Assembly (NCBI GenBank): GCA_000965745.1 | Contig: CP009479.1 | Coordinates: 32,001 to 96,000, forward strand | Length of the DNA: 64,000 nucleotides | Source of the DNA: an uncultured archaeon | GTDB taxonomy: Archaea; Thermoplasmatota; Thermoplasmata; Thermoplasmatales; Thermoplasmataceae | Direction: 5' to 3' | In this document: positions 27,680-46,683 of the stretch, in pieces | Layout of the letters: each line of letters begins with the position of its first letter | Position numbering within the stretch: the stretch's first letter is position 1 | The notes under the pieces: generated by a model | Database searches by the model: none | The model's input: only the letters and a program-made list of their open reading frames with translations | Told to the model about the DNA's origin: nothing | Program-made: the position numbers and the translations under genes

Positions 27680-28534
27680 TCAGGGCCTTTTTTCCATCAT
27701 TCTTTCTTTTATTGTGTCTCTCATGGACTCTACGTCCACCGTCCCGCCAAAATAATCTGCCCTTACCGCGATTGCGAGCTTGTTTGCGAGTGTTCTCGAA
27801 ACCCTTCCCCTTCTTTTCGGGGGAAGTGAAGATATTCCCGGGAACTTGAAGATCACGCCATGCTTGGGCGGTGGAGTTCCGGACCTCATATGCTTGAAGA
27901 AAGCCTTGTCTGCGCCAAGGACCTGTAAAGTGCTGGCAGGGTACCGCACAAGATTCTTCAGCCCCCCTCCGAGATATAATATTTCTGTTGCAAGATCGGC
28001 CCCAACGAGGGCTGTGCTGTTCGGCATCACCGTGCCTATCCGGCCTGCTATGAAAGTGGAAAGGTTCGTCCGGAGGCCGCACATCCTGACCCCCTCTGTA
28101 GAGATCTCCCTGAGGATCGTGTTCAGGCCGGGATCTTCTGTATCGGAGCCGATAAGGGCGAAGAACCTGCATGGATCATTTCCATATTCAGGAAACCCTG
28201 AAAGATGCTCCAGGACAGTGGTCTTCTCGAGATAGAGGTTGATTATCCTGTCCATCTCAAGCCTCAGGCCGAACAGCTTGATAATCAGCTGGTCTTCGGA
28301 GAACTCATCTTTGATCCTTCTTTTTCCGTAGCTTATCAGCCTTTCTCTTAGGTCCGGAATCGTCCCCGCTGCCTGTGTTGTTTCCGGAAGCCTTCCTTCC
28401 CTGAGGGTATCGAAAATCTCTTCGTAATTTTCCTCCAGACCTTTGAACTGGCCTGTCAGTTCTCCTTCTTCCACTATCCCGTACCACTTTATCTCTCTTG
28501 GTGGCTTTTTCTGGCCTTTTTTCTTGTTTTTCAT
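27680..28534 (-). CDS. nop5: Nop5 (Nop56/58) family C/D RNP protein, short form
   Basis: MPNS.ALVG, PASTLQVLGADKAFF, PPKHGVIF, RGRVSRTLANKLAIAVRAD; ATG at 28534 with GAGGT upstream. Confidence 0.88.
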   Translation of the reverse strand: MKNKKKGQKKPPREIKWYGIVEEGELTGQFKGLEENYEEIFDTLREGRLPETTQAAGTIPDLRERLISYGKRRIKDEFSEDQLIIKLFGLRLEMDRIINLYLEKTTVLEHLSGFPEYGNDPCRFFALIGSDTEDPGLNTILREISTEGVRMCGLRTNLSTFIAGRIGTVMPNSTALVGADLATEILYLGGGLKNLVRYPASTLQVLGADKAFFKHMRSGTPPPKHGVIFKFPGISSLPPKRRGRVSRTLANKLAIAVRADYFGGTVDVESMRDTIKERMMEKRP

Positions 28535-29486
28535 GGAAAACCTCAACCTTCCTCTTTGGTGCTTCTTCACTCACGGGCCTGGCCTTTCCCGGCCCCCTCT
28601 TCCTCTCGGGCTCGACCATGACCCTGTCGAAGTCCACGACCTTGAGGTCGGAAATATCTGATGAATGGACAAGCATCCTGCCCGTACCTATCAATTCGTT
28701 ATTTTCTGAAAGGACGCAGACCCTGTCGCCGATTCTTGCCTCCCCCACCATGGATTTTATACCTCCGGGGTAAAGGTCTGCGCCATGCGCGATGTTGTCT
28801 ATTGCTGATTTTTTCACGATGATCTTTGGCTTGTCACTGAAGAGATAATTCATCGGAAGGAAAATCCCCCTGAACGGCCTGTCATCGCCCTGGTTCATGA
28901 GCTCTACGGAGTCCTTGAGCTTCTGGATGGTTGTCATCCTGTCCTCCCTGAAAACTCCAGTTGAGATCCTGCGAAGGTCTGCCATCTGTGCACCAGTCCC
29001 AAGGACATACCCCATGTCAACACAGAGTGTCCTGATATAGGTCCCCGAGTCCGTCTTTGCCCGGAAAAGGATCATCTTGCCCTCCTTCTCCACCAGTTCC
29101 AGCTCGTATATCCTCCTGGACCTGATCTCCCTGGCCACTGCTGACTTCATTGGAGGAATCTGGTACACTTCCGTCTGGAACTCCTTCATGACTTCAATGA
29201 GCCTCTCTTCTGATACGTCCGAATGAATGCGCATTGCGCAGATATATTCCTTCGTGTCCTCATGGGCCACATCGATCAGCTTTACAGCTTTGCCGATCGC
29301 CATCACAAGCAGCCCTGTTGCATTAGGGTCGAGAGTGCCCACATGGCCAACCTTGTCGACCCCGAGGATCTGCCTTACCCAGTGGTCCACCTGGTGACTC
29401 GTCGGCCCCTTCGGCTTGTCTATGATAATGAATCCGTCCAGTTTATGGAACTTTTCCGGCGAGTCTGATTTTGTCATAAATTTCAT
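28305..29486 (-). CDS. cbf5: H/ACA pseudouridine synthase Cbf5 with a long basic C-terminal tail
   Basis: DKPKGPTSHQV, GHVGTLDP, GTYIRTLC, PUA domain; start at 29486 or 29477. Confidence 0.95.
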   Translation of the reverse strand: MKFMTKSDSPEKFHKLDGFIIIDKPKGPTSHQVDHWVRQILGVDKVGHVGTLDPNATGLLVMAIGKAVKLIDVAHEDTKEYICAMRIHSDVSEERLIEVMKEFQTEVYQIPPMKSAVAREIRSRRIYELELVEKEGKMILFRAKTDSGTYIRTLCVDMGYVLGTGAQMADLRRISTGVFREDRMTTIQKLKDSVELMNQGDDRPFRGIFLPMNYLFSDKPKIIVKKSAIDNIAHGADLYPGGIKSMVGEARIGDRVCVLSENNELIGTGRMLVHSSDISDLKVVDFDRVMVEPERKRGPGKARPVSEEAPKRKVEVFHEKQEKRPEKATKRDKVVRDSGRRRTDRPVQRSGGKLRRDFRYPQGRKASGNNTGSGDDSGPKRKADKLRKKKDQR

Positions 29487-29985
29487 TCACTACTTGCTCA
29501 ACAGATAGGTTTTCAGTATTTATAATGAGATCGTAGTATTTCTCATCCCTGTAGTCGATTCCATAGAATTCCCTGTACCTCTTTATCTCAGACTCCTCCC
29601 TTTCCCTGACAAGAGCCCTTATCTTCCCGGAATCGGACTGCTCCCTTCCCGATACTCTTTTCACCCGGGTCTCAAAGGGCGCGTCTATGAAAATCCTGAA
29701 TGAGTCAATGGAGTTGTTGAAGCATATCCACCCCACCAGCCTTGATTCCACAACAACGTTGTCGTTATTCCTCATGAAGCCAAGTATCAGGCTGTCCTGC
29801 TGCTTGTCTATGTCGATGTGGGTCTCTGCGTACACGTTGAATTCCTCAAGGCTCATGTTGTATTGTGCAGCGAGCTGTCGGAAAAAAGTCCCCCCGGAAA
29901 AAAATTCGTATTCGAGCAGTGATGCAAGTTTCTTGCCTACACTGGACTTTCCTGAACCGATGGGGCCACTAATCGTTAATTTCAT
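29443..29985 (-). CDS. cmk: cytidylate kinase
   Basis: ISGPIGSGKS, VVESRL, REESEIKRY..YGID. Confidence 0.93.
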   Translation of the reverse strand: MKLTISGPIGSGKSSVGKKLASLLEYEFFSGGTFFRQLAAQYNMSLEEFNVYAETHIDIDKQQDSLILGFMRNNDNVVVESRLVGWICFNNSIDSFRIFIDAPFETRVKRVSGREQSDSGKIRALVREREESEIKRYREFYGIDYRDEKYYDLIINTENLSVEQVVNEIYDKIRLAGKVP

Positions 29986-30661
29986 TTTCAGTTGAGTATT
30001 CCATTCTCCTCAGCTTGTATGTGAAGTCGACGTACTTGATCACCATTGTGACGAAGTATCCCACCACCATAACCGCTAGGAAGTAGATGATGATCCAGTA
30101 GTATATGTATGCGTAGAAATGCGTGTTCAGGTTAACGTTCCAGTTCCACGGGAATGCAACTATTGCGTATGGCAGGTTTGCAATGAATGAGAACAGCCAT
30201 ATGAATATGAGGTAGGTCACCACACTGAATATCATCAGGGGCTTCATGGTGTTCATTGAGACCTGCTGCTGCTCCATTGTCACGTCCATCTGCATCTTCC
30301 TCAGCTTCTGGATCCTGTCCTTCTGGCCACTCTTGTAAGCTTCCCTCATTGTCTTGCTGAAAGCCTTCATCCTGTTCTGGGCCTTTCCCATCTTCAGCCA
30401 GTCCGTGAAGAAGTACCTGGGAATTGAGGTCACGACCCCTATAAGTATTCCTGCAAGTAGCAGAGTAAGGACAGGCAGGTCGAAGTTGAACCCTATGAGG
30501 GGCGAGAAAACTACATCCAGGGCATTGCCTATGGCAGTCCTCAGTGTAGTGTTGGACAATATAATGATATATACAAAGAAACTCAGCATGTAAAGCATCT
30601 GGGTCTGGAGGCCTTTTTTCATGCCTTCCTGCGGAGTTTTAGTCTTGTTCTGTTCAGTCAT
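29969..30661 (-). CDS. DUF106 / EMC3-TMCO1 (Oxa1 superfamily) membrane protein
   Basis: TM-coiled coil-MKPL-TM architecture; position after adk. Confidence 0.88.
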   Translation of the reverse strand: MTEQNKTKTPQEGMKKGLQTQMLYMLSFFVYIIILSNTTLRTAIGNALDVVFSPLIGFNFDLPVLTLLLAGILIGVVTSIPRYFFTDWLKMGKAQNRMKAFSKTMREAYKSGQKDRIQKLRKMQMDVTMEQQQVSMNTMKPLMIFSVVTYLIFIWLFSFIANLPYAIVAFPWNWNVNLNTHFYAYIYYWIIIYFLAVMVVGYFVTMVIKYVDFTYKLRRMEYSTENEIND

Positions 30662-31220
30662 CTGTCCTCAGCCTTGATATGATAGTATTCGCTGCTATGT
30701 TAGGTTTTCCCTCGGGATTTTCTATTATGTTCACCGTGGCTCCCGTGAAAACAGAATATGCAGCGGCATAGTACCTGTTTATCTCCTGGTCCATTCTTAT
30801 GTCATTTTCAGTGGCTGCGTCCCTGTCTCTCGTGCTGTCGGTTGCCCTCCTGCTCAGTACGAGTGATGGGTCAGCCTCTATGACGAAGTATGCTCCGACC
30901 TTGAGTTCCCTGATGACCCACTCAGGCAATCCGGGGAGATAGCCACCGTGAGATTTTATTGACATGTGGGTGTCGATTATTACTGAATCCATCTTCCCAA
31001 TGGCTGCGGAGGCTTTCTTCTGCAGGTTGATCTGCGTGTCTACAGAAAGCTTCCTCAGTCCGTCTCTGTTCTCCACAAGGCCGATGTCCTTGGCCATTTC
31101 AAACATGAGGGTACCGAAGTTTATGATATCATAATTAGTCCCCTTCTTGACCAGATCCAGAACTGTCGATTTACCGACACCCGCGACTCCCGAAATTACG
31201 ACTCTCAATTTATCCACCAA
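30654..31220 (-). CDS. adkA: adenylate kinase (archaeal)
   Basis: GVAGVGKST, NFGTLM, DTH, GYLPGLP. Confidence 0.95.
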   Translation of the reverse strand: MVDKLRVVISGVAGVGKSTVLDLVKKGTNYDIINFGTLMFEMAKDIGLVENRDGLRKLSVDTQINLQKKASAAIGKMDSVIIDTHMSIKSHGGYLPGLPEWVIRELKVGAYFVIEADPSLVLSRRATDSTRDRDAATENDIRMDQEINRYYAAAYSVFTGATVNIIENPEGKPNIAANTIISRLRTDD

Positions 31221-32970
31221 CGAAAAACTGCCTAATGACCGGGTGCATCTCCATAAGCTGCTCCTTGCCCATCGCCTCGTAGAACTGGATCACTATGCCC
31301 ACCGCCAGCAGCAGGCCGGTTCCGCTTGTATTCCCCACCGTCCCTATGAGGTTTGCGCCGGCCGCAAGGAGACCGACAGCTGCACCACTGAATACTGTTA
31401 TCACTGGAATGTACTTGTTAAGCACCCGTTCCATGACCTTTGGGTCTCTTCTGAAACCCGGTATCTGCATACCGCTGGACTGTATCTGCTTGGCAACCGA
31501 GGCGGCACCCATGTTCGTAGTTTCGATCCAGAACTTCGCGAATATCACGCTCGCGATTGTCATGAACCCGACAAATGAGATTATATGTGCCGCTTCCTGA
31601 AAGCTGGAGTGGCCCAGGAGAATCGACTGGTACCCTGCAGGGCTGATTATGGGAAACAGCCAGTCCGACAGGCCGTTGGGAGAGAAGAGGTAGAACGCCA
31701 GGCCGCTGGTCGGCGTAGTCTTAGATATGCCAAGCTGTGTAATCTGCTGTGCCGTTGGATAAGCTCCCAGAAGAGCATTATGTCCGAGCAGTGGAACGTG
31801 GCTCAGCACGGGCGACGACCAGAACAGCAGTGTCCACATTGAGATGTTTGCAAGCAGTGCTGTTGCGAGTATGACCGGTATGTTTGAAGCGTAGAAAAGC
31901 TGGAGCGGGTATCTTCCCCTGGCACCCCTCACCCTTTCATGGGCTATGGGGAGCTCAATCTTGCTGCTCTGGAAGTATGCGACGATGAAGAATATGAGCA
32001 GTGTCCCTATCAGGGCAATCATGGGGTTCGGCTGCTGAAAGAGTATCTGCACTATGCCCTGGGAGTTGATGTAACCGCTGCTGGATGTCCCTATGATGTA
32101 TAGCATCTTGGGAATAGCTCCGGCGGGAGGGTTTGCAAGAGACAGTGCAACGCCCACTTTGGCCGGAAGCCAGTTCAGTGTTCCTGTGACTAGCTGCTGC
32201 GATACTCCGGCCGCAATGAAGAGCGAAATACCGGATCCTATCCCGTATTTGGACACCACCTCATCCATCAGGAAGACCAGATATGAACCGAAGAACAGCT
32301 GTAGGACAATTATGGATTCGGCGAGAAAATTTCCGTATCCCGGCACCAGGCCGTTGAGGTTGTTGATAAGGAGCTGGTCCGGGACAAGATAGCCGAATGC
32401 CTGTGGTATTGCTTCGACGAATATCATGATGATTACCAGGAGTTTCTGGGTCCCCTGGTACATTGCCTTGTCCTTTGAGTTCTGCAGGTCTATGTTGAAA
32501 ATCTTTGCACCTGCGAAAAGCTGCATGACGATGCTTGCAGTTACGATCGGCCCTATTCCCAGTGCCATCAGGGATCCCTGGGCACCTGCGAATATGGCCC
32601 TGAATGATGCGAACACATCAACGCTCTGCTGTGTGTTAAGCCCGTAAATATAAACGTTTGTGAGAGCGAAGTAGAGTATAACGACGAGGGCGGTCCATAT
32701 CATTTTCCACTTGAACTGGACATGGCCGGATGCCTTCTTTATGGCGGGAAGCTTGGAAGTCAGTGTTTCCAAACCGTAAAGCTTGCTTTTCTCGGGCCCG
32801 ACATAACTCGCCACCAGATAAATCAGGTAGAATATCGGCGACGTCAGCAGTCCGGTCACCATGAGATGAGATACCCCAAGGTGCCCGAAGTACCAGAAGC
32901 CCGTGAGCATTAATGCGAAAACTACCAGAACTGGTAGTATGACCCCTCTATTCCTGTGAATTTCCGCCAT
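31210..32970 (-). CDS. secY: preprotein translocase SecY with an N-terminal 2-TM extension
   Basis: LGIGPIVTASI, GIGSGISLFIAAGV, YASNIPVIL, QIPGFRRD, GTGLLL; start MAEIH at 32970. Confidence 0.96.
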   Translation of the reverse strand: MAEIHRNRGVILPVLVVFALMLTGFWYFGHLGVSHLMVTGLLTSPIFYLIYLVASYVGPEKSKLYGLETLTSKLPAIKKASGHVQFKWKMIWTALVVILYFALTNVYIYGLNTQQSVDVFASFRAIFAGAQGSLMALGIGPIVTASIVMQLFAGAKIFNIDLQNSKDKAMYQGTQKLLVIIMIFVEAIPQAFGYLVPDQLLINNLNGLVPGYGNFLAESIIVLQLFFGSYLVFLMDEVVSKYGIGSGISLFIAAGVSQQLVTGTLNWLPAKVGVALSLANPPAGAIPKMLYIIGTSSSGYINSQGIVQILFQQPNPMIALIGTLLIFFIVAYFQSSKIELPIAHERVRGARGRYPLQLFYASNIPVILATALLANISMWTLLFWSSPVLSHVPLLGHNALLGAYPTAQQITQLGISKTTPTSGLAFYLFSPNGLSDWLFPIISPAGYQSILLGHSSFQEAAHIISFVGFMTIASVIFAKFWIETTNMGAASVAKQIQSSGMQIPGFRRDPKVMERVLNKYIPVITVFSGAAVGLLAAGANLIGTVGNTSGTGLLLAVGIVIQFYEAMGKEQLMEMHPVIRQFFVGG

Positions 32971-33388
32971 TGGTTTCGACCGTGATACCGTTAGAGGAAA
33001 GCTTCTTAATGGTTTTTTCTGTGGCTTTGCCGACAACTATCCTGCTTTTTACCCTGAATTCACCTGTAGCCAGCAGTTTTGTGTAACCCGCGCTGGTAAG
33101 GTCTATTACCTTCTCCCCTTCCTTTCCTGAGACGAAGCCTTTCTGCTCGAATGCCGGATAGCACTCAGCCAGCTCTTTCAACGTGATTGGAACCTCAGGG
33201 ACAGACGGGTGATGGCTTGTAAACCCGTGGACGCCGAAGTGGTCCGGGTCGTACTTGAGCGTCCATATCCACTTGTGCTTGAGGAGGCCCGCGTTTCCTT
33301 TTCCTCCTCTCTTGCCCTTGCCTCTTCCGGATTTCATTCCACGGCCGTAATGGCCACCTCTAAGTTTCTTGGTCCTAGTTCGAACCAT
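32948..33388 (-). CDS. rpl15: 50S ribosomal protein L15
   Basis: [25 protein letters not shown]. Confidence 0.95.
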
Positions 33389-33866
33389 TCAGATCAACTC
33401 CCGGTAATACCATTCTCTTTATCAGCTCGTTTATTTTCTCTCCCCTGTAGCCTGAGGAACCTCCATTCTGGAATGATTTCCTGACTGCCTCATAGCCTCT
33501 CTTGGGAGGGTTGAGCCTGAACAGGGGCACGATTCCCTCGATATCCCTGTATTTGATTTTCCCTTTGATTAGTGATTTCGCGAGTTCGGAGAAGTCCTTT
33601 GAACCTGTTATCTCCTTAAGCTGCTCCTCTTCAAGCTTCTTTCTGCCTGCAAGCATTGCTCTGTGTTCCAGGACAGCTTCGAGAGTTGCCTCGTCGATTT
33701 CTCCCCAGGTAAGGTAGTCCCTTGCCCTGTTGAGCATTCCCCTGGTGACGTCGTTGTCTTCCAGAATAACCATGTGATTTATCCTGTTCAGCCTGAGAAG
33801 CTCGGCCGTCTTCTTTGCAGCCGGCTTTAATCCTGTCCTTCCCCTAATCCTTATTACTGCTAACAT
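33375..33866 (-). CDS. rpl30: 50S ribosomal protein L30
   Basis: [25 protein letters not shown]. Confidence 0.95.
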
Positions 33867-34509
33867 TGGCAACACTTCCCACATATATAGGTGTACTAAG
33901 CTGTATGGCCGGATTTATCTTCACTTTGGCGGTCTGGACCATGGCACTGTAGGCCGCAAGGGCGTAGTTCACTGTTGTTTTAGTGTGTCCGCTTGCAAAT
34001 CCCCACGCATCATCAATTCCAGCCATGGAAAGGATTGTCTTTGCCACGTCCCCTACTGCCCTTCCTACTCCTCTTGGGGCAGGCTTCATAGTGACAACCA
34101 CTGATCCTGATTTTCCCACTACCTGGAACGGGAGCGAGTGTGCTCTGCCGCATCCGCACTCCCAGGACCCGCAGCCTCTCCTGACTTCAATGACATGCAG
34201 CTTGGCGTTGTTGATTGCTTTCCTGATTGCGGGTGCAGCCTCCTTGGCCTTTCCCATCCCTACTCCCACGAAACCGTCACCGTTTCCGACGGCCGCAGTG
34301 ATTGAGTAGTTCATCCTTCTTCCTGAATCGGTCATCCTCTGGGCCCTCTCGACGTTTATGATCTCGTCGCTGAGTTCCGGCAACAGATAATCGACAATCT
34401 GGTATTCCCTCAGTGGAAGCTTTGTCCTGAGAGCTTCTGACATGGTTTTTATCTCGCCCGTTGCGACTAATTTTCCCAGTTGTGTCCTGGGAGTCCATTC
34501 CTCACTCAT
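33844..34509 (-). CDS. rps5: 30S ribosomal protein S5
   Basis: [24 protein letters not shown]. Confidence 0.97.
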
Positions 34510-34994
34510 AGTGATTCCTCCAATTTGCTCTTAGCTTCTTCAATGTTAATCACGGATTTCTTGAGATGTTCTCCCTTGATTCTCGACTCATCAGGGAATA
34601 TCTTCTCATCATACGGGATCTCTATCCCTGCATCCACGAACCCCTTGAGGGCAGCAGATATTCTCCCGCCTGTGGTTATGTTGTACCTGCCTGTATCGAG
34701 TATGGCACTCCCGACGTTCTGTTTCTTTGCCTTGAGGCCGGTTGCATAGCCAACCAGGTATGATATGGGCGTGTTGTTCCCCAGTGTTTCGAGCCCAAGC
34801 TTCTTCAGGCTCCTGTCAGTTACTGTCGATATGACCCTGTCGCCTTCCGGGCTGAATGATATAACCTGTGCGCTTATTCCCCTGTGGGTTGGCCTTACAA
34901 CGAACCTTGGTGTCTCGGATGATACCATCTTTAGCCTCTTGTGATAGTTGGTCTGCCCTGATCTCCTTCTCTTTAGGACTCTCGGTGTCTTCAT
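34506..34994 (-). CDS. rpl18: 50S ribosomal protein L18
   Basis: RRRSGQTNY..RLK, LDTG, ALKGFVDAG. Confidence 0.95.
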   Translation of the reverse strand: MKTPRVLKRRRSGQTNYHKRLKMVSSETPRFVVRPTHRGISAQVISFSPEGDRVISTVTDRSLKKLGLETLGNNTPISYLVGYATGLKAKKQNVGSAILDTGRYNITTGGRISAALKGFVDAGIEIPYDEKIFPDESRIKGEHLKKSVINIEEAKSKLEESL

Positions 34995-35446
34995 TGTTCA
35001 CCACCCATTTCGCCAGTTGACTTAAGATGGCTCTGGAGCTGTGCCCTTGATTTTATTGAGCCGCCCTTGATTACCCTGTACATTTTCCTGTATGTCTTTG
35101 CGTCTATCTTTTCCTCGGACTTGAGTTTCCTGAGCTCGTCCCTGAGTGGCCTGATGGTCTTGATCCACCTCTGTTTCCTTGGGAATCTTGCATATTTCTT
35201 CCCCTTTATGGAACCAGGGCCTCTCCTTCTTTCCTTGGACCTCTGTCTGATCCTTTTCTTCAGCCTGTAATTTGAATTTCCTTTCTTCTGCCTGATCTGG
35301 ATAACATTTCTCCTGATGAGGTACCTGATGTCCTCCCTGGAGGCTGCCTCAGCAACTTCCTCAACGCTGTTAGTGTCTATCCAGACTCTTGAGATTCCGG
35401 ACTTGAACTCATCAGCTGCTATCCTTCGTGCTGTCTCAATCTTCAT
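34991..35446 (-). CDS. rpl19e: 50S ribosomal protein L19e
   Basis: RRIAA...SRVWID, RRGPGS.KG, WIKTIR; start MKIET. Confidence 0.95.
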
Positions 35447-35852
35447 TTCTGACACCTCTGTTAAGCACCCTGACACCAAGCTCATCGGCTACTTCAAGCA
35501 TATCTTCCCTTTTTCTATCCCCAACTTTGGAAGATATTCTTGCTGCCTCAAGCTTCGGGTCAAGTGCCTCAAGGTCTTTCTCGTTGAATACCAGTACTTC
35601 CTTGAAACCTGAGGGATGCAGTCCCCTGACCAATTTGGGCGTCCTGTATCCTGCATCCACCATGGGGGGCTTTTTCTTCAAGTGCTCCCTCTGCTTTGAG
35701 TGCTTTCCCCTCGGCTTTCTCCAGGAATCTCCAAGCTTCTTGTACCTGAACCATTCCTGCCTGTGGAATTCCACTCTTTTCTTTGCCTGTTCGTTCTTGA
35801 TCTTGAGGAGCCTTTTCTGTTCCTTTGAAAGATGGGGTTTGCCTATTGACAA
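35436..35852 (-). CDS. rpl32e: 50S ribosomal protein L32e
   Basis: WRKPRG.HSK, GYRTP, RGLHPSG. Confidence 0.96.
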
Positions 35853-35853
35853 T

Positions 35854-36390
35854 CTACTCGCCTCCCTTTAGCAGGTAGATTCCATCCTGGAATATTCTCG
35901 GATCAAATCTCCTGATCTTTGTTGCTCTCTCTATGTTTGCCGAAGTCTCACCGATCTCTCTCTTGTCTATGCCTTCAATGGTAAGCCTGTCTCCCTTGAC
36001 GTTGACTTTCGTGTTTCCGATTATGTTTGCTATCCTTGCGGACCTCTCACCGAGGAAATTTTCCACCACTACGGCGTTCCCCCTCACGGAAACCCTCATG
36101 GGAAAGTGAGTGTAATCTATCTTCATGTGGTATTCGAAACCGCTCGTAACACCGTTTATCATGCTCTTGAGCTCTGAAGTCCAGGTGCCAAGGATACCGT
36201 TGTTCCTGCGGTTCTTCTTGCTCATGGTTATTTTTATCTTGCTGCCTTCGATCGAAATTCTGAGATAGTTGTCCGGGAGATTCCTCTTTACCTCTCCCTT
36301 CGGGCCCTTAACTGTAATCACAGTACCTGCCTGATTGGCAGTAACTCCCTCAGGAATATCGATCTCTGCTGCTTCTTCCCATTTCACCAC
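35854..36390 (-). CDS. rpl6: 50S ribosomal protein L6
   Basis: [25 protein letters not shown]. Confidence 0.96.
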
Positions 36391-36399
36391 TTGTATCAC

Positions 36400-36789
36400 C
36401 TAATAGACGTATGCTATGAGTCTTCCCCCGAGACCCATCTTCCTTGCTTCGATATGGCTCATCACTCCCTTCGTTGTTGAAAGGATGAGTATGCCGAAAT
36501 CCTGGGCAGGAAGATACCTGGCTTCATACTTGTCCAGGTTTGCCCTTTTCACTGGCAGCCTGGGCTTGATAACACCACAGTTGTTTATGGTGTTGCTGAG
36601 CACTATCTTGAATTTTCCGCCTCTGCTGTCGTCCATCACTTCAAAGCTCTTCAGGTAGTTGTATTCCTGCATTACCTTCAGAACCCTGCCGATGAGCCTC
36701 GCAGCCGGCTCGGTTTCAATCTCTTTTCTGCCGATCCTTGATGCGTTCTTTATCACGTTGATTATATCATTTAACGGGTCGTGTTTCAT
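36400..36789 (-). CDS. rps8: 30S ribosomal protein S8
   Basis: INNCGVIKPR, LPAQDFG, TTKGVMSH. Confidence 0.97.
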   Translation of the reverse strand: MKHDPLNDIINVIKNASRIGRKEIETEPAARLIGRVLKVMQEYNYLKSFEVMDDSRGGKFKIVLSNTINNCGVIKPRLPVKRANLDKYEARYLPAQDFGILILSTTKGVMSHIEARKMGLGGRLIAYVY

Positions 36790-36798
36790 TTGTTCACC

Positions 36799-36960
36799 TC
36801 AGCTGTATTTCCTGAATCCCAGTACGGGTGCAGTATCCCTGAAACACTGCCTGCACAGGCGAAGACCGTATCTCCTGACTAGGCCTCTTTTGCGCCCGCA
36901 TCGCTGGCACCCGTCCTTGCGTCCGAATTTTTTCTTAGGTTCAAGTTTGATTTGACTCAT
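36799..36960 (-). CDS. rps14: 30S ribosomal protein S14 (Zn type; missing from the ORF track)
   Basis: [53 protein letters not shown]. Confidence 0.96.
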
Positions 36961-36964
36961 TGAT

Positions 36965-37480
36965 TCACCTTACCACCACGAGGCCGTACTTGCTGGTCAG
37001 GAATTCCATGGCCTCCTCCCTTTTTACCCTGATTTTTGAGGGCACCTTCTTTGCGCCTATCTTCCTCTTGTGGAGCCTGAAGCCTCCTTTCCTCTTGATT
37101 ACAACTGCAACGTCCATGCCGAATATTCCGATATTTGGATCGTACTTCATTCCCTTGAAATCAGTGTAATCGGCAACTCCGAAGTATGCGTTGCCCTGCT
37201 TGTCGAATGAATAGTGGGGAACCTTGTATTCCCTTGCATACAGAGCCCTCTGGAGGAATTCCTCAGCGTCTTTTCCCCTCAGCGTTACCTTTGTGCCTAT
37301 TGTCAGGCCCTGTCTTATGTTGAAGTCTCTCACTGTCTTCTTTGAGGTAGTGGTGACAGGAGTGTGCTTGGTTAGCATCTCAAGCACCTTCGTTGCCTTT
37401 GTGAGCCTTTCGCCCGCCTGGCCTACTCCTATATTCACAACTACCTTGTCGATAGTGATCTCTTCCATTGGGTTACTCAT
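36965..37480 (-). CDS. rpl5: 50S ribosomal protein L5
   Basis: [26 protein letters not shown]. Confidence 0.97.
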
Positions 37481-38195
37481 AGACTGCTACACCCCCTATC
37501 TTGGGTATCTCATACGAATACTTCGCCCCGCCTACGACAAAAGCGTAATCGGTGATTGTTGAGTATCCTTCCTCGAAGTGTATCAGGTTCTTGTGCGATG
37601 ATTCCTTGATCTCGATCTTCTTGATTGTGGCAACATTGCCGGCGTGCGATCCGCCTGTGAGGAATACCTTGTTTCCCGGCTGGAGCTTCATTACTTCCTG
37701 TATCTTCTTGCCGGGGATTGTCACCAGTGCTACATCGCCGGGTTTTACTTCCTTGTTGTCAGATACCACGATCTGCCCGTCATGGAAGCTGAGCTGGATT
37801 TTCCCGCCCTTTATTGTTGACTTGTCCATCACTTTCATGAGTTTCTTGTCGGAGTTATCCTTGCTCTCCTCTCCGAGAACGAGGCCGCCTTTCCTGTCGT
37901 ACAGGACCCGGAAGCTCTTTCCAACCTGGTCTATGGTAATGAGATCCATGAAGCCTACAGGATATCTCCTGTCTTTCACTATTTTTCCATCCACCTTTAC
38001 AAGGCCGTTTACCAGGATCCTTGTGATCTCCCTTTCCTTGTCTCCTATCTTGAGATAATCCCTGAGTGCCGTGAGGAGTGCCATTGAATCCTTTCTGTTG
38101 TGTTTGCCCGGCCTCGGGCTTGCTCCCCAGAAGAAGGTCTTCCTTGGTATCTTGACGGACCTTGATATCATCAGTCTCTTTGTCTTGTTGATCAT
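37473..38195 (-). CDS. rps4e: 30S ribosomal protein S4e
   Basis: PGKH, VKVDG, PVGFMD, HDG, GGSHAG. Confidence 0.96.
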   Translation of the reverse strand: MINKTKRLMISRSVKIPRKTFFWGASPRPGKHNRKDSMALLTALRDYLKIGDKEREITRILVNGLVKVDGKIVKDRRYPVGFMDLITIDQVGKSFRVLYDRKGGLVLGEESKDNSDKKLMKVMDKSTIKGGKIQLSFHDGQIVVSDNKEVKPGDVALVTIPGKKIQEVMKLQPGNKVFLTGGSHAGNVATIKKIEIKESSHKNLIHFEEGYSTITDYAFVVGGAKYSYEIPKIGGVAVYE

Positions 38196-38704
38196 TCTTT
38201 TTCCACCTCTTCTTCTGTTTCCTCTTCAGTTTCATCAGATTCTTCTTCAGGCTCTGCTTCCATTACCTCAGGTTCCTCTCCTTCCCCGGCCTGCTCTTCC
38301 ACCGGTTCTTCAGGTGTCTCGGCTTCCGCCTCCCCCTCTTCTGCCTCTTCGGCAGGTTCAGGCTCCGGCTCAGGTTCGGGGACTTCCTCCACTACGATAT
38401 TCTTCCTGGCGGCAAGATCCTTTATCTTCTGGAGCCTCCCTGGAGACGAAAGCTCAAGCCTTGTTATTCTGAGTATATTGGAAGGCAGCAGGTATTCCTC
38501 CTGCTTGCCGTCCGATTTTGATATTGTGATTCCATCAATGGAGACTCTGGAGCTCTTGTGGTTTACCTTCATGACCTTTCCTCCTTCCCCTTTCCTGGAA
38601 CCTGTCTTGATTGTTACCACATCGCCGGATGCGATTGGAAATGACCTTATGCCGTATTTTTTCCTCAAATCCTTGCTCAATGCTACTCTTACCTTGTTTT
38701 CCAT
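38192..38704 (-). CDS. rpl24: 50S ribosomal protein L24 with an acidic C-terminal extension
   Basis: LSKDLRKKYG.RS, GDVVT..GS.KG; about 65-aa Glu/Pro tail. Confidence 0.92.
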   Translation of the reverse strand: MENKVRVALSKDLRKKYGIRSFPIASGDVVTIKTGSRKGEGGKVMKVNHKSSRVSIDGITISKSDGKQEEYLLPSNILRITRLELSSPGRLQKIKDLAARKNIVVEEVPEPEPEPEPAEEAEEGEAEAETPEEPVEEQAGEGEEPEVMEAEPEEESDETEEETEEEVEKE

Positions 38705-38716
38705 ATCCAACCGACC

Positions 38717-39115
38717 TCACACTATTGTGGAGGCTACCGAGGCAATCCTTGGCCATCTCTCTGCAGCCTCTCTTGCTACGGGGCCTTTGATTTCGGAGCC
38801 TCTTACCTCTCCTTCTGGAGTGACAAGAACTGCTGCATTGTCATCAAATTCCACCATTGTGCCGTCCGATCGCCTGTAGGGCCTTCTCTGCCTCACTACG
38901 ACCGCGTATACGACTTTGCTCCTCATTTCGGGAGTTCCCTTCTTCACGCTTGCTATGAACATGTCACCTATACCGGCGGCAGGTATTCTCCTTGCAACGC
39001 CATGGTATGCCTTCACGCCAATGAGGCTGATTATTTTCGCACCGCTGTTGTCTGCACAGGGTACCACAGCTCCAAGCGGGAGCCCTCTTTGCTGCCTTCC
39101 AGCAATGCCTTTCAT
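38717..39115 (-). CDS. rpl14: 50S ribosomal protein L14
   Basis: [29 protein letters not shown]. Confidence 0.97.
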
Positions 39116-39438
39116 GGGTTCACCTTTTCAACTACCACGAAGGAAACCGTCTTTGCAAGTTTCCTGCACTCTGCTATCTTGACCGTGTCGCCCGGCTTAA
39201 CCTGGATGCATTCAGGAACGTGCGCATGATACTTTGAGAAGAGCGTCAGCTTTCTCTCGTATTTTGGAAGGTACCTCTGATGGGTACGCTTTATCACTGC
39301 GCTTCCATTCATCGCGGGAGACTCGACTATTCCGCCGATGATCTGCCCCCTTATTGAAAGAGTTCCGTGAAAGGGACACTTCTGATCGTTGCATTCCTGT
39401 TCCGGAAGCTTTACATCTAATCCTATGTTTCTGGCCAC
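39112..39438 (-). CDS. rps17: 30S ribosomal protein S17
   Basis: [23 protein letters not shown]. Confidence 0.96.
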
Positions 39439-39439
39439 C

Positions 39440-39748
39440 TTAATCACCGTTTATTATACCGTTTCTCAACATTTTCCCAATTCTTCTTCGTTCCTTGATG
39501 CGATCTTCTGGTCTGAATACCGCGTAACTTCCATTGATTGTGAATTTTTCCTCTGTTGTGGCGAGTTCGAAGACCCTGCCACTTTTGACGATCCTCTTTA
39601 CCCCGTTTTCCTTTCTGAGTTCTACAGTGTTTTTTGTTTCATTGCACAGGGTTCCGGCTATACCGTTCTCTGCCGGATTCGGTGAACTAATCACCTTCGC
39701 ATTCAATCCTATCCATTCGTGGAAATACACATTATCCTTGGTAATCAA
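39440..39748 (-). CDS. rnp1: RNase P protein component 1 (Rpp29)
   Basis: HEWIGL, GIAG..ETKNT, RPEDRIK. Confidence 0.92.
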   Translation of the reverse strand: MITKDNVYFHEWIGLNAKVISSPNPAENGIAGTLCNETKNTVELRKENGVKRIVKSGRVFELATTEEKFTINGSYAVFRPEDRIKERRRIGKMLRNGIINGD

Positions 39749-40048
39749 TTAAATCAGCTCTGCCCTGAATCCCATGCTTTCAAGCTGTTTCTTGACAGTA
39801 TCTCTATGGTCTCCCTGGAGTTCTATTGTTCTCCCGTCCTTTACAGTTCCACCCGAAGCAACCTTTTTCTTCAGCAGTTTGGCTATCTCGTCGATGTTCT
39901 CGCTCTTGGGGTCGATCCCCTCGATTATTGTCACATTTTTCCCGTATCTTCTTTTGTCCACGCTTATCCTCACTGCCTGAGTATCTCTTGTAAACCCTTC
40001 CCAAGGTTGCAATTCCTTGGGTATTCCTGTGAAGTTCTTATCCTTCAT
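39749..40048 (-). CDS. sui1: translation initiation factor aIF-1 (SUI1)
   Basis: RRYGKNVT.IEG, GGTVK, IELQGDH. Confidence 0.95.
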   Translation of the reverse strand: MKDKNFTGIPKELQPWEGFTRDTQAVRISVDKRRYGKNVTIIEGIDPKSENIDEIAKLLKKKVASGGTVKDGRTIELQGDHRDTVKKQLESMGFRAELI

Positions 40049-40248
40049 TCCTTTTGATCCTCCGAACCCATAACGGTCTTTATTCTGGCTATTTGTCTCC
40101 TTATTGACTTGATTTTCCCGGGATTCGAAGGCTGGCCTCCAAGAGCCACGGTAGCCCTCTCATGGAGGAGGGATTCTCTAAGCTGATCCAGAGCCTTTTC
40201 CCTCTCTTCACTGCCCATCTGTTTCAGTTGTTTCGCTCTTAGCTCCAT
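40045..40248 (-). CDS. rpl29: 50S ribosomal protein L29
   Basis: [17 protein letters not shown]. Confidence 0.95.
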
Positions 40249-41374
40249 TTTCCTCTACCCTACCTTCATCTTTCTTTACTTCCTCGGCCGCTTCCGGCTT
40301 TGGCTCTTCTGATTCCTTCTTTTCTGCCTTTTTCTCTGATTTCTTCTCAGTTTTTTTGGTAGTTTTCCTGGGAGCTGGTTTTTCCTTTACGGCTTCCTTT
40401 GGCTCTTCAGCTGGCTTCTCTTCCACAGGTTTTGTACCTTCCGCCTTTGCTTCAGGCTCCTTCACTTCAGGTTTTGCCTCTACTTTCTTCTCCTCAGCCT
40501 GGGGCTTTACCTCTTCAGCCTTTACTTCGGCTTCAGGTTCCTTCACTTCAGGTTTTGCCTCTACTTTCTTCGCTTCGGCTTGAGGACTTACCTTTTCCTT
40601 GGCCTTTTCAGCCTCTGGCGTGGGCTTTGCTTTTCTTTCAGCCGGCCTGGCCTGCCTTTCTTCAGGCTTCCTCGGCCTTCTTCCCCTGGCACCGGGCCTC
40701 TCTCTCTGCCCCTCAGGCTTCTTTGCCACTGCCTCTGCCTTTTGGTCCCCTTCCTGTATCAGCTGTGGGGTTGAAACTCCAAGCTTTTCAGATACGACAT
40801 AGTCGTCAGGGAGCTTGTAGTCGCTCTTGAGTATTCCTACTTTGACTCCAATCACGCCAAGCTTGAGCTTGGCAATTGAGAACCCTCTCTCCATTCCTTC
40901 CCTCGCGGGCTCTCCGGAGTACTTCACGGAACCGCTCATGAATTTCTGCATCCTTCCCCTCTCTCCTGAGAGCTTTCCGGATACTGAAATTATGACGCCT
41001 CTTGCACCGTTCTCAACGATTCTCCTCAGAGAAGTGTTTCCTGCCTTCCTGTACGCCCAGCCTTTTTCCAGTGAAAGGGCGATCTTCTTTGATACAACCT
41101 GTGGATTCAGGTCGGGATTGTCGATCTCCTTGACTTCAATCTGCGGTGATTCGATCTGGTACTTCTTTTCGAGATTCTCTGTGATCTGCTGGACCTTGGA
41201 GCCATGCCTTCCAATGACAAGGCCAGGCTTGTTTACGTGAAGTGTTATGTTGGTTCCGAATGGTGTCCTCTTCATCTCCATCCCTCCGAAACCGGCGTTC
41301 TCAGTCTCCTTTCTTATGTATTCAGAGACCAGCAGTTTCTTCACTGCCTCGTTGATAAACTTCCTCTCGTTCAT
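40208..41374 (-). CDS. rps3: 30S ribosomal protein S3 with a ~190-aa K/E/P/A-rich tail
   Basis: KH domain [26 protein letters not shown]; low-complexity C-terminus. Confidence 0.96.
40449..40571 (-). repeat. 81-nt-period in-frame tandem duplication in the rps3 tail
   Basis: 42-nt unit at 40449-40490 and 40530-40571 with one mismatch ([14 protein letters not shown] twice). Confidence 0.85.
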
Positions 41375-41820
41375 TCTTCTACCTCTTCAAGTACTATTTC
41401 AAGATTTATCAGGTCCTTGAAATTTGCTCCCGCTCTTCCATAGGCCTTTGGTGTGTATTTCTTAATCATTCTTCCCTTGGATGCTGCTATGTGCTTTACC
41501 ACGAGGGCATCCATGTTCAGGCTCTTGAATTCTGCATTGGCCTCTGCGTTGTCTATCAGTTCCCTGAATGCCTTTGCCGCTTTGACCGGGTACCTCCCCG
41601 GGCCCATTCCCCTTTTGTGTGAGACGGAATCGAGGTATCGGAAATAGGGGACAGGTGTCTTCTTTTCTATTACTCCGTCTATCAGATCCCTGACGCGCTC
41701 TAGCTTCTTTCCCCTGAGGAAATGGGCTATGTTGACCGCGTCCTTGAGGGATATGTCTGTCTCCTTTACCCTCGCAATGGCACTTTTTTCAGGTATTTCA
41801 GTTATTGAGTATCCTTTCAT
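41371..41820 (-). CDS. rpl22: 50S ribosomal protein L22
   Basis: [22 protein letters not shown]. Confidence 0.96.
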
Positions 41821-41824
41821 ATGA

Positions 41825-42280
41825 TCACTTCAGCGGCATGAACTTGGAGGACCTTGTAGCACCTACTCCCGGCCCGGAGTGCTTGACATCCTTCCTTGTA
41901 GGAGCAAATTCCCCAAGGTAGTGGCCTATCATTTCCGGCCTGATCTCAAACTTGACGTATTGATTGCCGTTGTATACCTCGAGAACTTTCCCAACGTATT
42001 TGGGAAGTATAACGAAACTCCTTACATGCGTCTTGATGTTTGCCTCTGATCCTTCCATCTTCTCTTTCAGCTTGGCCTGCTCGTAATTGAAATCCCTCGT
42101 AAGGGACCTCCTTATTCTTGCAGGTAGTATTTCCAGCAGTTTTTCAAATTCGAGCGCCTGAAGTTCTTCAATGGTAAGCCCCTTGTATCTGAACTCCTTG
42201 GATCTTCCTGCCGCTACCTTCTGTGACTTTCGTGACCTTCTCTTTATGGATTTTACAGATGCCTGCTTTTTGACCGGCAT
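41825..42280 (-). CDS. rps19: 30S ribosomal protein S19
   Basis: IKTH.R, VYNG, MIGHYLGEF, GATRSSKF. Confidence 0.97.
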   Translation of the reverse strand: MPVKKQASVKSIKRRSRKSQKVAAGRSKEFRYKGLTIEELQALEFEKLLEILPARIRRSLTRDFNYEQAKLKEKMEGSEANIKTHVRSFVILPKYVGKVLEVYNGNQYVKFEIRPEMIGHYLGEFAPTRKDVKHSGPGVGATRSSKFMPLK

Positions 42281-42975
42281 TAACTCTTCCTCCTCTTCTT
42301 GGGTGAAAGCCTGCCCACCTTTCTTCCGGGTGGTGTGCCTCTTCCTACCGTGCTCGGGCGGCCCACATGCTGGTGGTTACCTCCTCCATGCGGATGTTTA
42401 ACGGCATTCATTGCCACACCTCTCACGGAGTATGCTTTTTTCGCCCTGCTCTGATAATAGTGAACCTTTCTTCCTGACTTGAGTATCGGTATATCCTTCG
42501 CCCCTGTTCCTGCTATTGTCCCCATGCTTGCCTTGCAGCCTGGATGGAACTGCTTTGTCTTTCCCGACGGAAGCTTTATCGTGACGTTTACGCCATGGCT
42601 TATCACCAGTGCGCCTGTCCCTGCAGTCCTGCAGAACTTGCCTCCATCTCCGGGGATGCTCTCGATGTTGTAAACGGTTGTTCCATCAGGGATTCTTCCA
42701 AGTGGAACAGTGTTTCCCATAGTGACCTGGTCCGATTGGCCGATGTTGATTTTCTGGCCGACGTGTGCGCCGACGAATGCTATCTGGTAGTGTTTCTTTC
42801 CGGTTTCATCCTGCAGCACCAGCACGGGGGAGCTTCTCCCCGGTGACTGCCTGATGTCAACCACTGTGTATGCTCCTTCAGAAGGGTGCCTGATGTCTGC
42901 TACGTGCCTGTGGCTTGGGCTTCTGTATACTATGCCCCCTTTACCCCTTCTCTGAGCCGTTATTAATTTACCCAT
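42280..42975 (-). CDS. rpl2: 50S ribosomal protein L2
   Basis: [20 protein letters not shown]. Confidence 0.97.
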
Positions 42976-42984
42976 TCATACACC

Positions 42985-43233
42985 TCAGAATATACCCATC
43001 CTACCTGCGACTTCGTCTGCAGAGTAGTCTTTTGTGAGTTTCACGATGGCTTTCTTTCCGTTCTTAGTAATCATGATGTTAACCTTTTCAACTTTTACGT
43101 CAAACCTTGCTTCGACTTCTTTTATGATGTCTTCTCTCCTGGCTTTTCTGTTCACCAGGAATGTGATCTTGTTTTCCTTTTCTGTCTGAAGGGTTGTTTT
43201 TTCTGTTGCGACGGGAGATATGATGATTTCCAT
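42985..43233 (-). CDS. rpl23: 50S ribosomal protein L23
   Basis: P.ATEK, FDVKVEKVN, KKAIVKL. Confidence 0.95.
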   Translation of the reverse strand: MEIIISPVATEKTTLQTEKENKITFLVNRKARREDIIKEVEARFDVKVEKVNIMITKNGKKAIVKLTKDYSADEVAGRMGIF

Positions 43234-43998
43234 TTACTGTACCCCCTTGCCCACCTGCTTAAGTGCACTTTCCGTAAACACGACGAGTCTTCCTGCCTGG
43301 CCTCCGGGAGCAAGCTTCCTGATACTCAGGCTGTCCGGGGTTGCCACCTCGACACCTGGAAGGGACCTGTATGCCTTTAGCGAGTCTGCTGAAGTGCTGA
43401 CGAAGAGAATGCTTTTCGGCTGCTTGTACCTTCTTCCCCTCATAGTTCCTCTTCCAGCCCTGACTTTCTTTCCTTCCTTTGCCCTGATCAGGTCGTCAAG
43501 CAGTCCCACTGATTCAAGGAAATTTTCTACGTCCTTAGTCTTAGTGATCTTGGCAGCTGCGTCCTCAACTATAACTGGAAGGGTGATGCCTTCTGGAATC
43601 CTGTGCCCTCTCCTGGAAACTGCCTCATTTGATGCTGTCATTGCAAGGGCGCTCATTCTTGCAAGCTTCCTCTCTTTCTCGTTTATCTTCTTCGTGAGGA
43701 TTTTGGTGGTCCTTGGTGAGTGAGCGCTCTTTCCGCCCACCATTGATGCGAGTATTACACCCCTGGATGAACCTGATGTTCTTGGTATTCTCGACACGCC
43801 TCTTCCGGGCCCTGAGTTGTGGCCTACTCGCCTCATTCCTGCCCTTGGTGAGGACCCGTATGGGCTCCTGAGGGAAAGGGTAACTGCCCTGAAAGCCTTC
43901 CTGATGAGGTCTTCCCTTGGAGCAGTGTTGAACACTTCCGGAAGTTCGATCTTCTTTACCTTTTCTCCTTCAATTGAGTATAGATTTGATTTCAACAT
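43234..43998 (-). CDS. rpl4: 50S ribosomal protein L4
   Basis: GRGVSRIPR, KINEKE, RAGRGTMRGRRY, LAPGG.AGRL. Confidence 0.96.
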   Translation of the reverse strand: MLKSNLYSIEGEKVKKIELPEVFNTAPREDLIRKAFRAVTLSLRSPYGSSPRAGMRRVGHNSGPGRGVSRIPRTSGSSRGVILASMVGGKSAHSPRTTKILTKKINEKERKLARMSALAMTASNEAVSRRGHRIPEGITLPVIVEDAAAKITKTKDVENFLESVGLLDDLIRAKEGKKVRAGRGTMRGRRYKQPKSILFVSTSADSLKAYRSLPGVEVATPDSLSIRKLAPGGQAGRLVVFTESALKQVGKGVQ

Positions 43999-44987
43999 TA
44001 ATCACCCTGCTTTGATTCCCTTGAAACATAGCTCAGTGTAAGCGAGTCCACTGAAGCAACTCTCTGCCTTGCCGGGTCTCTGAATTTGACAAGTCTCTTT
44101 GAAGGCCCCGGAACCGATCCGTGTATGAGGACGTAGTCGCTTCTGACTAGCCCGTATCCGGGGAAGCCTCCCTTGACATTGATATCATCCCCGTTGTCCT
44201 TTGGGGAATATCTTAGAACTCTCATGTTGTGGAACGTTCTCTGGTGTGTACCCATCTGGCCCGCCTGGGGCACAGTGTTTCTTACCCAGTCCGGGTGCCA
44301 TGGTCCCAGTGTTCCTATCATTCTTCTGTGCTTGCTGTTGTGTATATTCAATAGCTTTACACCGAATCTCTCGACATGGCCGGTGAAGCCTTTTCCTTTC
44401 GTGATTCCCGTGACGTCAACAAATTTTCCCTCGCCTGAAAATTCAGAGAAGCTGATTGACTTTCCAAGCTTTTCCTGGGCATACTTCAATTTTTCATCGT
44501 TTGTTGCGCCTGAGACGTTAATTTCAAAAATTTCCGGTGTTTTTGACGGAACACCCGTAACAACCTTCGGGTTTGTGCTTACTATGAGCCTTACACTGGA
44601 GAAGTCCTTCGGAACCTCCTTCTTCTTGTGTTCCTTTGCCTGTGGCTTTCTTCGTGCCAGGGACTTGTCCGGATTATCTGCCCACTGTTCATAAGCTACC
44701 TTCAGTCCTTCATAATCTTCCTTGTAGAGCCTTATGCCTACAACTGCAAGGGGAGGCACCTCTACGACTGTAACCGGAGCAACTATGCTCTGGCCTGCAG
44801 TAACGCTGGACTTCCTGTAGTCGACCATTTCAACATGGGTCATGCCTACCTTGTAACCGGCAAAGGCCTGTACCTTTGCCGGCCCTTCGGCTACCGGCCA
44901 GCTTCTTATGTCTCCCTGCATTCTCTTTGTGCGTACTCTGGGATAGTATCCTTTAGATCCTCTTCTAGGATGATGGGGCGTTGCCAT
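43998..44987 (-). CDS. rpl3: 50S ribosomal protein L3
   Basis: PRRGS, GYKVGMTH, TKGKGF.G, PQAGQMG.HQR, GSVPG. Confidence 0.97.
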   Translation of the reverse strand: MATPHHPRRGSKGYYPRVRTKRMQGDIRSWPVAEGPAKVQAFAGYKVGMTHVEMVDYRKSSVTAGQSIVAPVTVVEVPPLAVVGIRLYKEDYEGLKVAYEQWADNPDKSLARRKPQAKEHKKKEVPKDFSSVRLIVSTNPKVVTGVPSKTPEIFEINVSGATNDEKLKYAQEKLGKSISFSEFSGEGKFVDVTGITKGKGFTGHVERFGVKLLNIHNSKHRRMIGTLGPWHPDWVRNTVPQAGQMGTHQRTFHNMRVLRYSPKDNGDDINVKGGFPGYGLVRSDYVLIHGSVPGPSKRLVKFRDPARQRVASVDSLTLSYVSRESKQGD

Positions 44988-44999
44988 TACGTATCACCT

Positions 45000-45089
45000 G
45001 CAAACCGTTACACCTGTTTCTGGCAATGAGAAAGACATTGCCGAACAAGGGATGCCACATTATGCATTGCCCTGAGTGTATGGTGTTGC
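45000..45089 (-). promoter_or_regulatory. candidate cis-regulatory three-way-junction RNA leader of the rpl3 operon
   Basis: three nested stems between TATA boxes (45113-45129) and the SD AGGTGAT (44993-44999); see findings. Confidence 0.55.
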
Positions 45090-45201
45090 CTGAAAAGGAT
45101 AACTTACCACTCTATTTAAAGATTTATAACTGCACTTTCCGCCGGGATAGGCGGTACGATGGAATATTGGATATCCCTCTGATTGGTATGCTGGAAGGAG
45201 T

Positions 45202-46609: not shown

Positions 46610-46683
46610 GGGTCCGTAGCTTAGCCAGGTAGAGCGATGGACTCTTAATCCATAGGTCGGGGGTTCGAACCCCCTCGGACCCG
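46610..46683 (+). tRNA. tRNA-Lys (CUU)
   Basis: GGGTCCG/CGGACCC acceptor stem, ATGGA-CTCTTAA-TCCAT anticodon arm, GGTTCGAAC; TTATAAAT box upstream. Confidence 0.97.

Follow-up and report, generated by a model that had tools for sequence, protein, structure and literature searches.

A conserved three-way-junction RNA upstream of rpl3 in Thermoplasmatota, probably a variant of the L4-Archaeoglobi kind of leader

Introduction

The closest described counterpart of the RNA reported here is the L4-Archaeoglobi r-leader (RF03135), which was described by Eckert and Weinberg in 2020 with a ligand that is a candidate only (PMC7247131); uL4 was assigned to this element solely by bacterial precedent. In the same work RF03135 was rated borderline because 54% of its copies are located inside a PF02598 methyltransferase gene (PMC7247131). 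Among other ribosomal leaders, the S10 leader of E. coli is controlled by uL4 and is confined to some Gammaproteobacteria, and in archaea r-protein feedback is known for uL1; no uL3-controlled leader is described in the review that covers these cases (PMC10931766).

An earlier note on the DNA studied here, made from the sequence alone, proposed that an undescribed autoregulatory leader heads the rpl3 operon of a member of the Thermoplasmatales. We found no description of this RNA from Thermoplasmatota in the literature. In this work, the leader was compared with its relatives in the phylum, with RF03135 and with rRNA.

The leader and its operon

In the window, i.e., the whole stretch of 64,000 nucleotides that was analysed, MFE folding predicts a three-way junction in the 110 nt located 5' of the uL3 start codon, on the minus strand (Table 1). 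The outer part of P1 is formed by GCAA (45089-45086) and UUGC (45003-45000) and is followed by a bulged C45085; ACC (45084-45082) then pairs with GGU (45006-45004), and UACAC (45080-45076) with GUGUA (45013-45009). Between the last two segments there is a 1x2 internal loop, with A45081 opposite A45008-C45007. The 3x1 loop CAA/U of P2 reads as what we take to be a C-loop-like element. The junction that the earlier note had placed at the head of rpl3 was confirmed, but its helices had been written without the bulges (C45085, A45081, A45008-C45007 and the CA of P2), and the 3' side of P3 was slightly misspelt. The SD-like AGGUGAU begins directly after P1.

Table 1. Features of the rpl3 leader and the downstream genes (positions in the window)
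Feature	Position	Strand	Basis or remark
TATA box TTTAAATA	45113..45120	-	sequence; positionally conserved
P1a 5' strand (GCAA, bulged C, ACC)	45082..45089	-	MFE; outer pairs vary with compensation
Unpaired A of the 1x2 loop	45081	-	invariant: A in 73/73 homologs
P1b 5' strand	45075..45080	-	three pairs covary above all 60 tree-aware nulls
P2 hairpin: GGG/CCC, 3x1 loop CAA/U, upper stem	45048..45073	-	covariation, one upper pair above all nulls
P3 hairpin, sequence-variable, UUCU at 45032-45029	45015..45047	-	per-sequence folding
P1b 3' strand	45009..45014	-	covariation
AC of the 1x2 loop	45007..45008	-	invariant: each base in 73/73 homologs
P1a 3' strand	45000..45006	-	MFE and covariation alignment
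SD-like AGGUGAU	44993..44999	-	complementary to 16S 3' end (anti-SD) of the same genome
rpl3 (uL3), first gene	43998..44987	-	AUG at 44987
30 co-oriented genes (putative operon)	27680..44987	-	Pfam; uS14 read by eye

Two TATA boxes had been proposed at 45113-45129. The one at 45120-45113 is positionally conserved, since most leaders of the order have a TATA-like box 31-40 nt upstream of the P1 core, and a second group of leaders has one approx. 52-54 nt upstream of it; in contrast, the box near 45129-45122 is lost in a relative of the same genus. Genome-wide, and using crude ORF calls, the spacing between TATA-like boxes and the start codons of operon-first ORFs has its peak at 25-39 nt, and an SD-like motif is present in only 147 of these 1196 ORFs, in agreement with the suggestion that many genes are leaderless. 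From this TATA-to-ATG spacing, the transcript would start at approx. 45095-45090, i.e., at the 5' end of P1. Between the stop codon of an MFS transporter gene and the TATA box there is a small G+C hairpin (CCGCC/GGCGG, 45139-45154), which was not seen in the same-genus relative. Elsewhere in the window, a tRNA gene is located at 46610-46683 (plus strand), with the anticodon CUU (Lys) read from the Rfam alignment; the 16S and 23S genes are unlinked in this genome.

About 30 co-oriented genes had been announced downstream of the leader, and 30 were counted, which form a putative operon in the order uL3, uL4, uL23, uL2, uS19, uL22, uS3, uL29, SUI1, Rpp29, uS17, uL14, uL24, eS4, uL5, uS14, uS8, uL6, eL32, eL19, uL18, uS5, uL30, uL15, SecY, an adk-like kinase, EMC3/TMCO1, cmk, Cbf5 and Nop5. 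The stop codon of rpl3 shares one base with the start codon of rpl4. A few of the downstream ORFs show particular features. The uS3 protein (40208-41374, minus strand) has 388 residues, its Pfam domains stop at residue 181 and are followed by a low-complexity tail of roughly 190 residues rich in Glu, Lys, Pro and Ala, and the end of its ORF overlaps the start of uL29 by 41 nt. The SecY ORF (31210-33036, minus strand) has 608 residues as called, and its Pfam matches begin only at residue 120. The operon continues beyond cmk with Cbf5 and Nop5 (27680-29486, minus strand), whose called ORFs have 266 nt in common; the Cbf5 ORF reaches approx. 110 residues beyond its last Pfam domain, and Nop5 and a purF-like gene converge at their 3' ends.

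Taken alone, the leader of the window folds no better than chance (z = -1.25, with 24 of 200 shuffles equally stable), and its predicted MFE structure at 55 C is a different fold. Given that the single sequence is not beyond chance, the significance of the fold rests on its relatives.

Conservation across the phylum Thermoplasmatota

The same layout was found in all 29 rpl3 upstream regions first taken from the order of the window, and in most of 60 further regions from this order and the rest of the phylum; in 59 of 61 homologs the unconstrained MFE structure holds all five core pairs. When 46 sequences were aligned, 87% of the cells paired, versus 72% after shuffling, the covariation was above that of 500 out of 500 shuffles, and every slid register collapsed. 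In an alignment of 73 sequences fitted to the model, three P1b pairs and one P2 pair exceeded all 60 tree-aware null alignments; the P1b pair next to the loop, for instance, is U-A in 32 sequences, G-C in 35 and A-U in 3. The three loop bases of P1 (A on one side, AC on the other) are invariant in the 73 homologs. On the other hand, P3 does not have a shared sequence and cannot be placed in one alignment register, hence the evidence for this arm rests on per-sequence folding, i.e., in 72 of the 73 homologs this segment is more stably folded than its shuffles, with a mean z of -2.9. A UUYU motif occurs 14-20 nt before the 3' strand of P1b in 52 of these sequences, versus 4 expected.

An ordinary 5' UTR that folds by chance would account for the z value of the single sequence; nevertheless, this explanation is refuted by the compensatory changes across families and is extremely improbable. 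The conserved RNA is real, phylum-wide and uncatalogued, so that the expectation of a covarying RNA in relatives was borne out, while its restriction to the Thermoplasmatales was too narrow.

An RNA model built here from Thermoplasmatota rpl3 leaders (R1) matched 109 of the 150 genomes searched in the phylum, in nearly all cases at a single site, and the genome of the window has one strong site. Of 60 best matches that could be checked, 59 lie directly upstream of rpl3 on the same strand. Among the 150 genomes, several families (f9, f14 and f28) did not show a match to R1, and no motif was found upstream of rpl3 in L037 and L066; L066 has a TATA-like box approx. 40 nt before the start codon, as if the leader had been lost. 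In a genome that is 50% complete (G011:C1:27798-28773), the rpl3 match is split into four pieces with stop codons, probably due to sequencing errors; its leader (L038) is intact.

The periphery of the element varies. The families of L022, L024, L025, L036 and L031-L035 have a short P2 without an upper stem, and family f3 shows mismatches in P1b besides a short P2. In the leaders of family f8 (L042, L043, L046, L047, L049, L050, L086 and L087), the core is enclosed by a long outer helix, and a separate hairpin stops immediately 5' of the SD; this arrangement is possibly an expression platform.

The distance from the end of the core to the AUG is 13-20 nt for most leaders in the order of the window and 27-216 nt for other lineages. 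The proposal that P1 ends at the SD therefore holds in the order of the window but is not general, and SD abutment as a universal mechanism was rejected given this variation from 13 to 216 nt. It had also been suggested that a second GGCAAUG in P2 could compete for pairing and produce an alternative fold. This second copy is present; however, the alternative has a probability of approx. 1e-4 and is 5.4 kcal/mol worse, and the 7-bp complement occurs in only 2 of the 73 homologs, both of one genus; the GGCAAUG switch was therefore rejected.

Relation to the L4-Archaeoglobi element

Membership of RF03135 was defined by a covariance-model score of at least 34.5 bits. The RF03135 model, with which positive controls score, gave no match in the window, in 41 relatives or in 21 further leaders. 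As expected in the earlier note, which foresaw no match or a weak L4-Archaeoglobi match, the leader of the window gets no Rfam score, and scans at three search sizes did not return any relevant match. Likewise, R1 scored none of 12 Halobacteria loci, and matched none of nine distant rpl3 loci or of 41 genomes of another phylum; R1 is a narrow model, and these empty results do not imply absence. Six Thermoplasmatota accessions were not found in the accessible part of the supplements of PMC7247131. Formal membership fails because neither covariance model scores the other group.

The consensus structure of RF03135 (PMC7247131) has the same topology, i.e., an interrupted P1, an interrupted P2 and a variable P3. 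Four of nine weak R1 matches on 40 Halobacteriota loci fall on the RF03135 site, and in the alignments shown for the weak matches the two elements keep the same register; they share GACAC/GUGUC and the AC of the loop, and the closing pair is flipped. A sequence-only model of four blocks, trained on the phylum, chose the RF03135 site as the best one in 11 loci out of 39, versus approx. 0.1 expected, these loci being kin to each other. In both elements the asymmetric loop of P1 lies 5-6 bp from the junction, and P2 has a GGG/CCC base followed by a 3-nt 5' bulge. The features in which they differ are the CUGA/UCAG outer helix, mostly absent from Thermoplasmatota leaders (GCAA/UUGC in the window), and the UUYU in P3, which is present in only 9 of 39 RF03135 sites.

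These differences, together with the silence of each covariance model on the other group, would be expected if the Thermoplasmatota r-leader had arisen independently and resembled RF03135 by convergence on the same ligand. We consider this unlikely, given that locus, topology and the register of GACAC/GUGUC with AC and of GGG/CCC coincide, and that some leaders of the phylum carry the RF03135-type outer helix CUGAC/GUCAG (complete only in L042, partial in L047). The cross-detection between the two elements is weak but falls on the site, and the Thermoplasmatota leader is probably a divergent homolog of RF03135; the description of this RNA as undescribed stands insofar as Rfam does not catalogue it, but has to be qualified by this probable kinship.

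In five RF03135 loci (L213, L245, L247, L249 and L250), the flanks of the motif are conserved on both sides and a GGUC can pair with a GACC; this pairing is present in non-coding copies too. The Rfam model of RF03135 may be truncated.

The PF02598 methyltransferase gene

In Halobacteria, the RF03135 motif lies inside the PF02598 gene, 360-620 nt before rpl3, and at other RF03135 loci it lies in a non-coding relic of this gene. Three such non-coding copies (L245, L219 and L239) were seen within a decayed PF02598 gene; upstream of the one in L245, a methyltransferase-like coding stretch is still readable. A search of 301 Thermoplasmatota genomes did not find the gene in 292 of them, and near the nine copies that were found there was no rpl3 within 1.5 kb and no match to R1 or RF03135. 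Eight of the nine genomes that carry the gene have an R1 match on another contig, and three of these eight were confirmed at rpl3. The RNA follows rpl3 and not the methyltransferase, since it stays at rpl3 when the PF02598 gene is missing or elsewhere. Five Thermococcus-like genomes have a PF02598 gene before rpl3 and no motif detected by the narrow R1 model, from which absence is not implied.

These data bear on the possibility that the RNA is bound by a small molecule or by a factor other than a ribosomal protein, i.e., that it is a riboswitch-like growth sensor or the target of an enzyme that modifies or processes RNA, for instance the PF02598 methyltransferase. The compactness of the junction, the conserved loops in each of its three arms, the overlap of RF03135 with the methyltransferase gene mentioned above, and the lack of significant rRNA mimicry (see below) would suit such a ligand. 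In contrast, most of the phylum keeps the RNA while lacking a detectable methyltransferase gene, there is no conserved expression platform and the linkage to rpl3 is strict, which makes this possibility rather unlikely. A function tied to the PF02598 methyltransferase was rejected for Thermoplasmatota, given that the gene is mostly absent and its copies are without the motif.

Likeness to rRNA and candidate ligands

Imitation of the ligand's rRNA site is frequent among r-protein leaders, although it is no requirement. Six block scans of the 23S and 16S rRNA of the same genome all scored below the shuffled best. A three-block scan, designed after a likeness to the H73/H94 site was seen, placed this site at rank 2 of 68 in the 23S of the same genome and within the top three in roughly half of the relatives, but 22 of 40 shuffles scored as well. 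The helices are named here after the 23S map. The segment from P3 through the linker to P1b has spacing and motifs like those of the 3' strand of H73 leading into H94, also not above shuffles; this likeness is a lead, not evidence. Likenesses to H50, to H94/H96/H97, to H66 and to the uL4 site at H19/H20 were judged by eye only and are not claimed.

It has been reported that uL3 stabilises H73 and domain VI (bioRxiv 10.1101/2022.03.10.483802). It is conceivable, though doubtful, that the RNA binds uL3, and not uL4, by mimicking the H73-H94 junction; P3 with its UUYU would correspond to the 3' strand of H73 and P1b to the base of H94, read inside out. If this were true, the leader would have a new r-leader ligand, and the element would go back to an ancestor shared by two archaeal phyla and would function both from within coding DNA and as a stand-alone 5' UTR. 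As a rough ordering of ligands, uL3 would come first as a tentative candidate and uL4 second, followed, at the same lower level, by the group of uL22, uL23, uL2 or another r-protein and by no r-protein at all.

A possible mechanism

Beyond the junction itself, the conserved features are the A/AC loop in P1, the 3x1 loop in P2 and the UUYU in P3, and the leader, which normally occurs once per genome, is linked to rpl3 and preceded by a TATA box whose position is conserved. A protein-binding feedback leader fits the invariant unpaired bases on a fixed scaffold, the lack of a conserved switch and the linkage to rpl3. For these reasons, the reading that we favour as the probable one is that the RNA serves feedback by an r-protein and is the version of the RF03135 element that Thermoplasmatota possess. 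It is also possible that a protein-independent 5' fold serves to protect the long mRNA of the operon or to set how strongly it is translated, without feedback, and the beginning of P1 at the inferred transcript start in the order of the window, as well as the lack of a conserved alternative fold, would agree with this. Nevertheless, a stabilising stem needs neither unpaired bases that are invariant in 73 of 73 homologs nor a UUYU at a fixed distance, and the Halobacteria homologs lie deep inside a transcript, so that such a fold seems quite unlikely.

According to the feedback leader that we favour, the RNA would form the extreme 5' end of the operon transcript and fold into one compact shape, to which a free large-subunit protein from the operon would bind when rRNA is short. 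In the order of the window, the bound protein may clamp P1 beside the SD and block the loading of 30S subunits on rpl3, and the block would pass downstream through the overlapping stop and start codons; termination-reinitiation coupling has been reported for archaea (PMC6728339). For leaders with a long distance between core and AUG, the effect would have to be exerted via extra helices, termination or decay. A single SD-blocking mechanism cannot cover all the cases, because of the variable distance of the core to the AUG and the position of the Halobacteria copies far upstream inside a coding region.

Comparison with known systems

RF03135 is the one candidate for the control of the largest ribosomal-protein operon of archaea. 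The Thermoplasmatota variant is free of the PF02598 gene across a second phylum and stays with rpl3 where the enzyme is encoded elsewhere, which speaks for a function of the whole RF03135-like family in the control of rpl3. In this variant the element is also reduced to a core of 90 nt placed directly between the promoter and the SD, i.e., a minimal RNA with named invariant bases. It adds an RNA family that is missing from Rfam and is present in approx. 105 of 150 genomes searched.

The S10 leader of E. coli resembles the one described here in that it heads the homologous operon and is a long structured 5' UTR; however, its fold is different, and a bacterial-type terminator scan of the archaeal leader did not find an intrinsic attenuator hairpin with a U-tract. 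The archaeal uL1 mRNA operator is a precedent for translational feedback by an r-protein in archaea, but it belongs to another operon and another protein, and shows a clear rRNA mimicry, whereas the scans of the leader were not above shuffles. The C-loop is an RNA motif that occurs in H50 and H96 of 23S rRNA and in h15 of 16S rRNA. P2 resembles it, reading G-CAA-U over A-W-C, while H50 in the 23S of the phylum reads GGCAAUG and then CAGCC; nevertheless, the C-loop is a recurrent motif and not a family, the match of P2 is not above shuffles, and the upper part of P2 is lost in some families.

RF03135 remains the closest system. It differs from the Thermoplasmatota leader in belonging to another phylum and, in Halobacteria, in its much greater distance from rpl3 (approx. 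360-620 nt, versus 13-216 nt from core to AUG); the loop of P1 in Thermoplasmatota is an invariant A/AC closed by C-G, and no examined copy in this phylum overlaps a PF02598 gene. Both elements are located upstream of rpl3-rpl4-rpl23-rpl2 and share the variable P3, and what is new here is probably a variant of the L4-Archaeoglobi kind in Thermoplasmatota.
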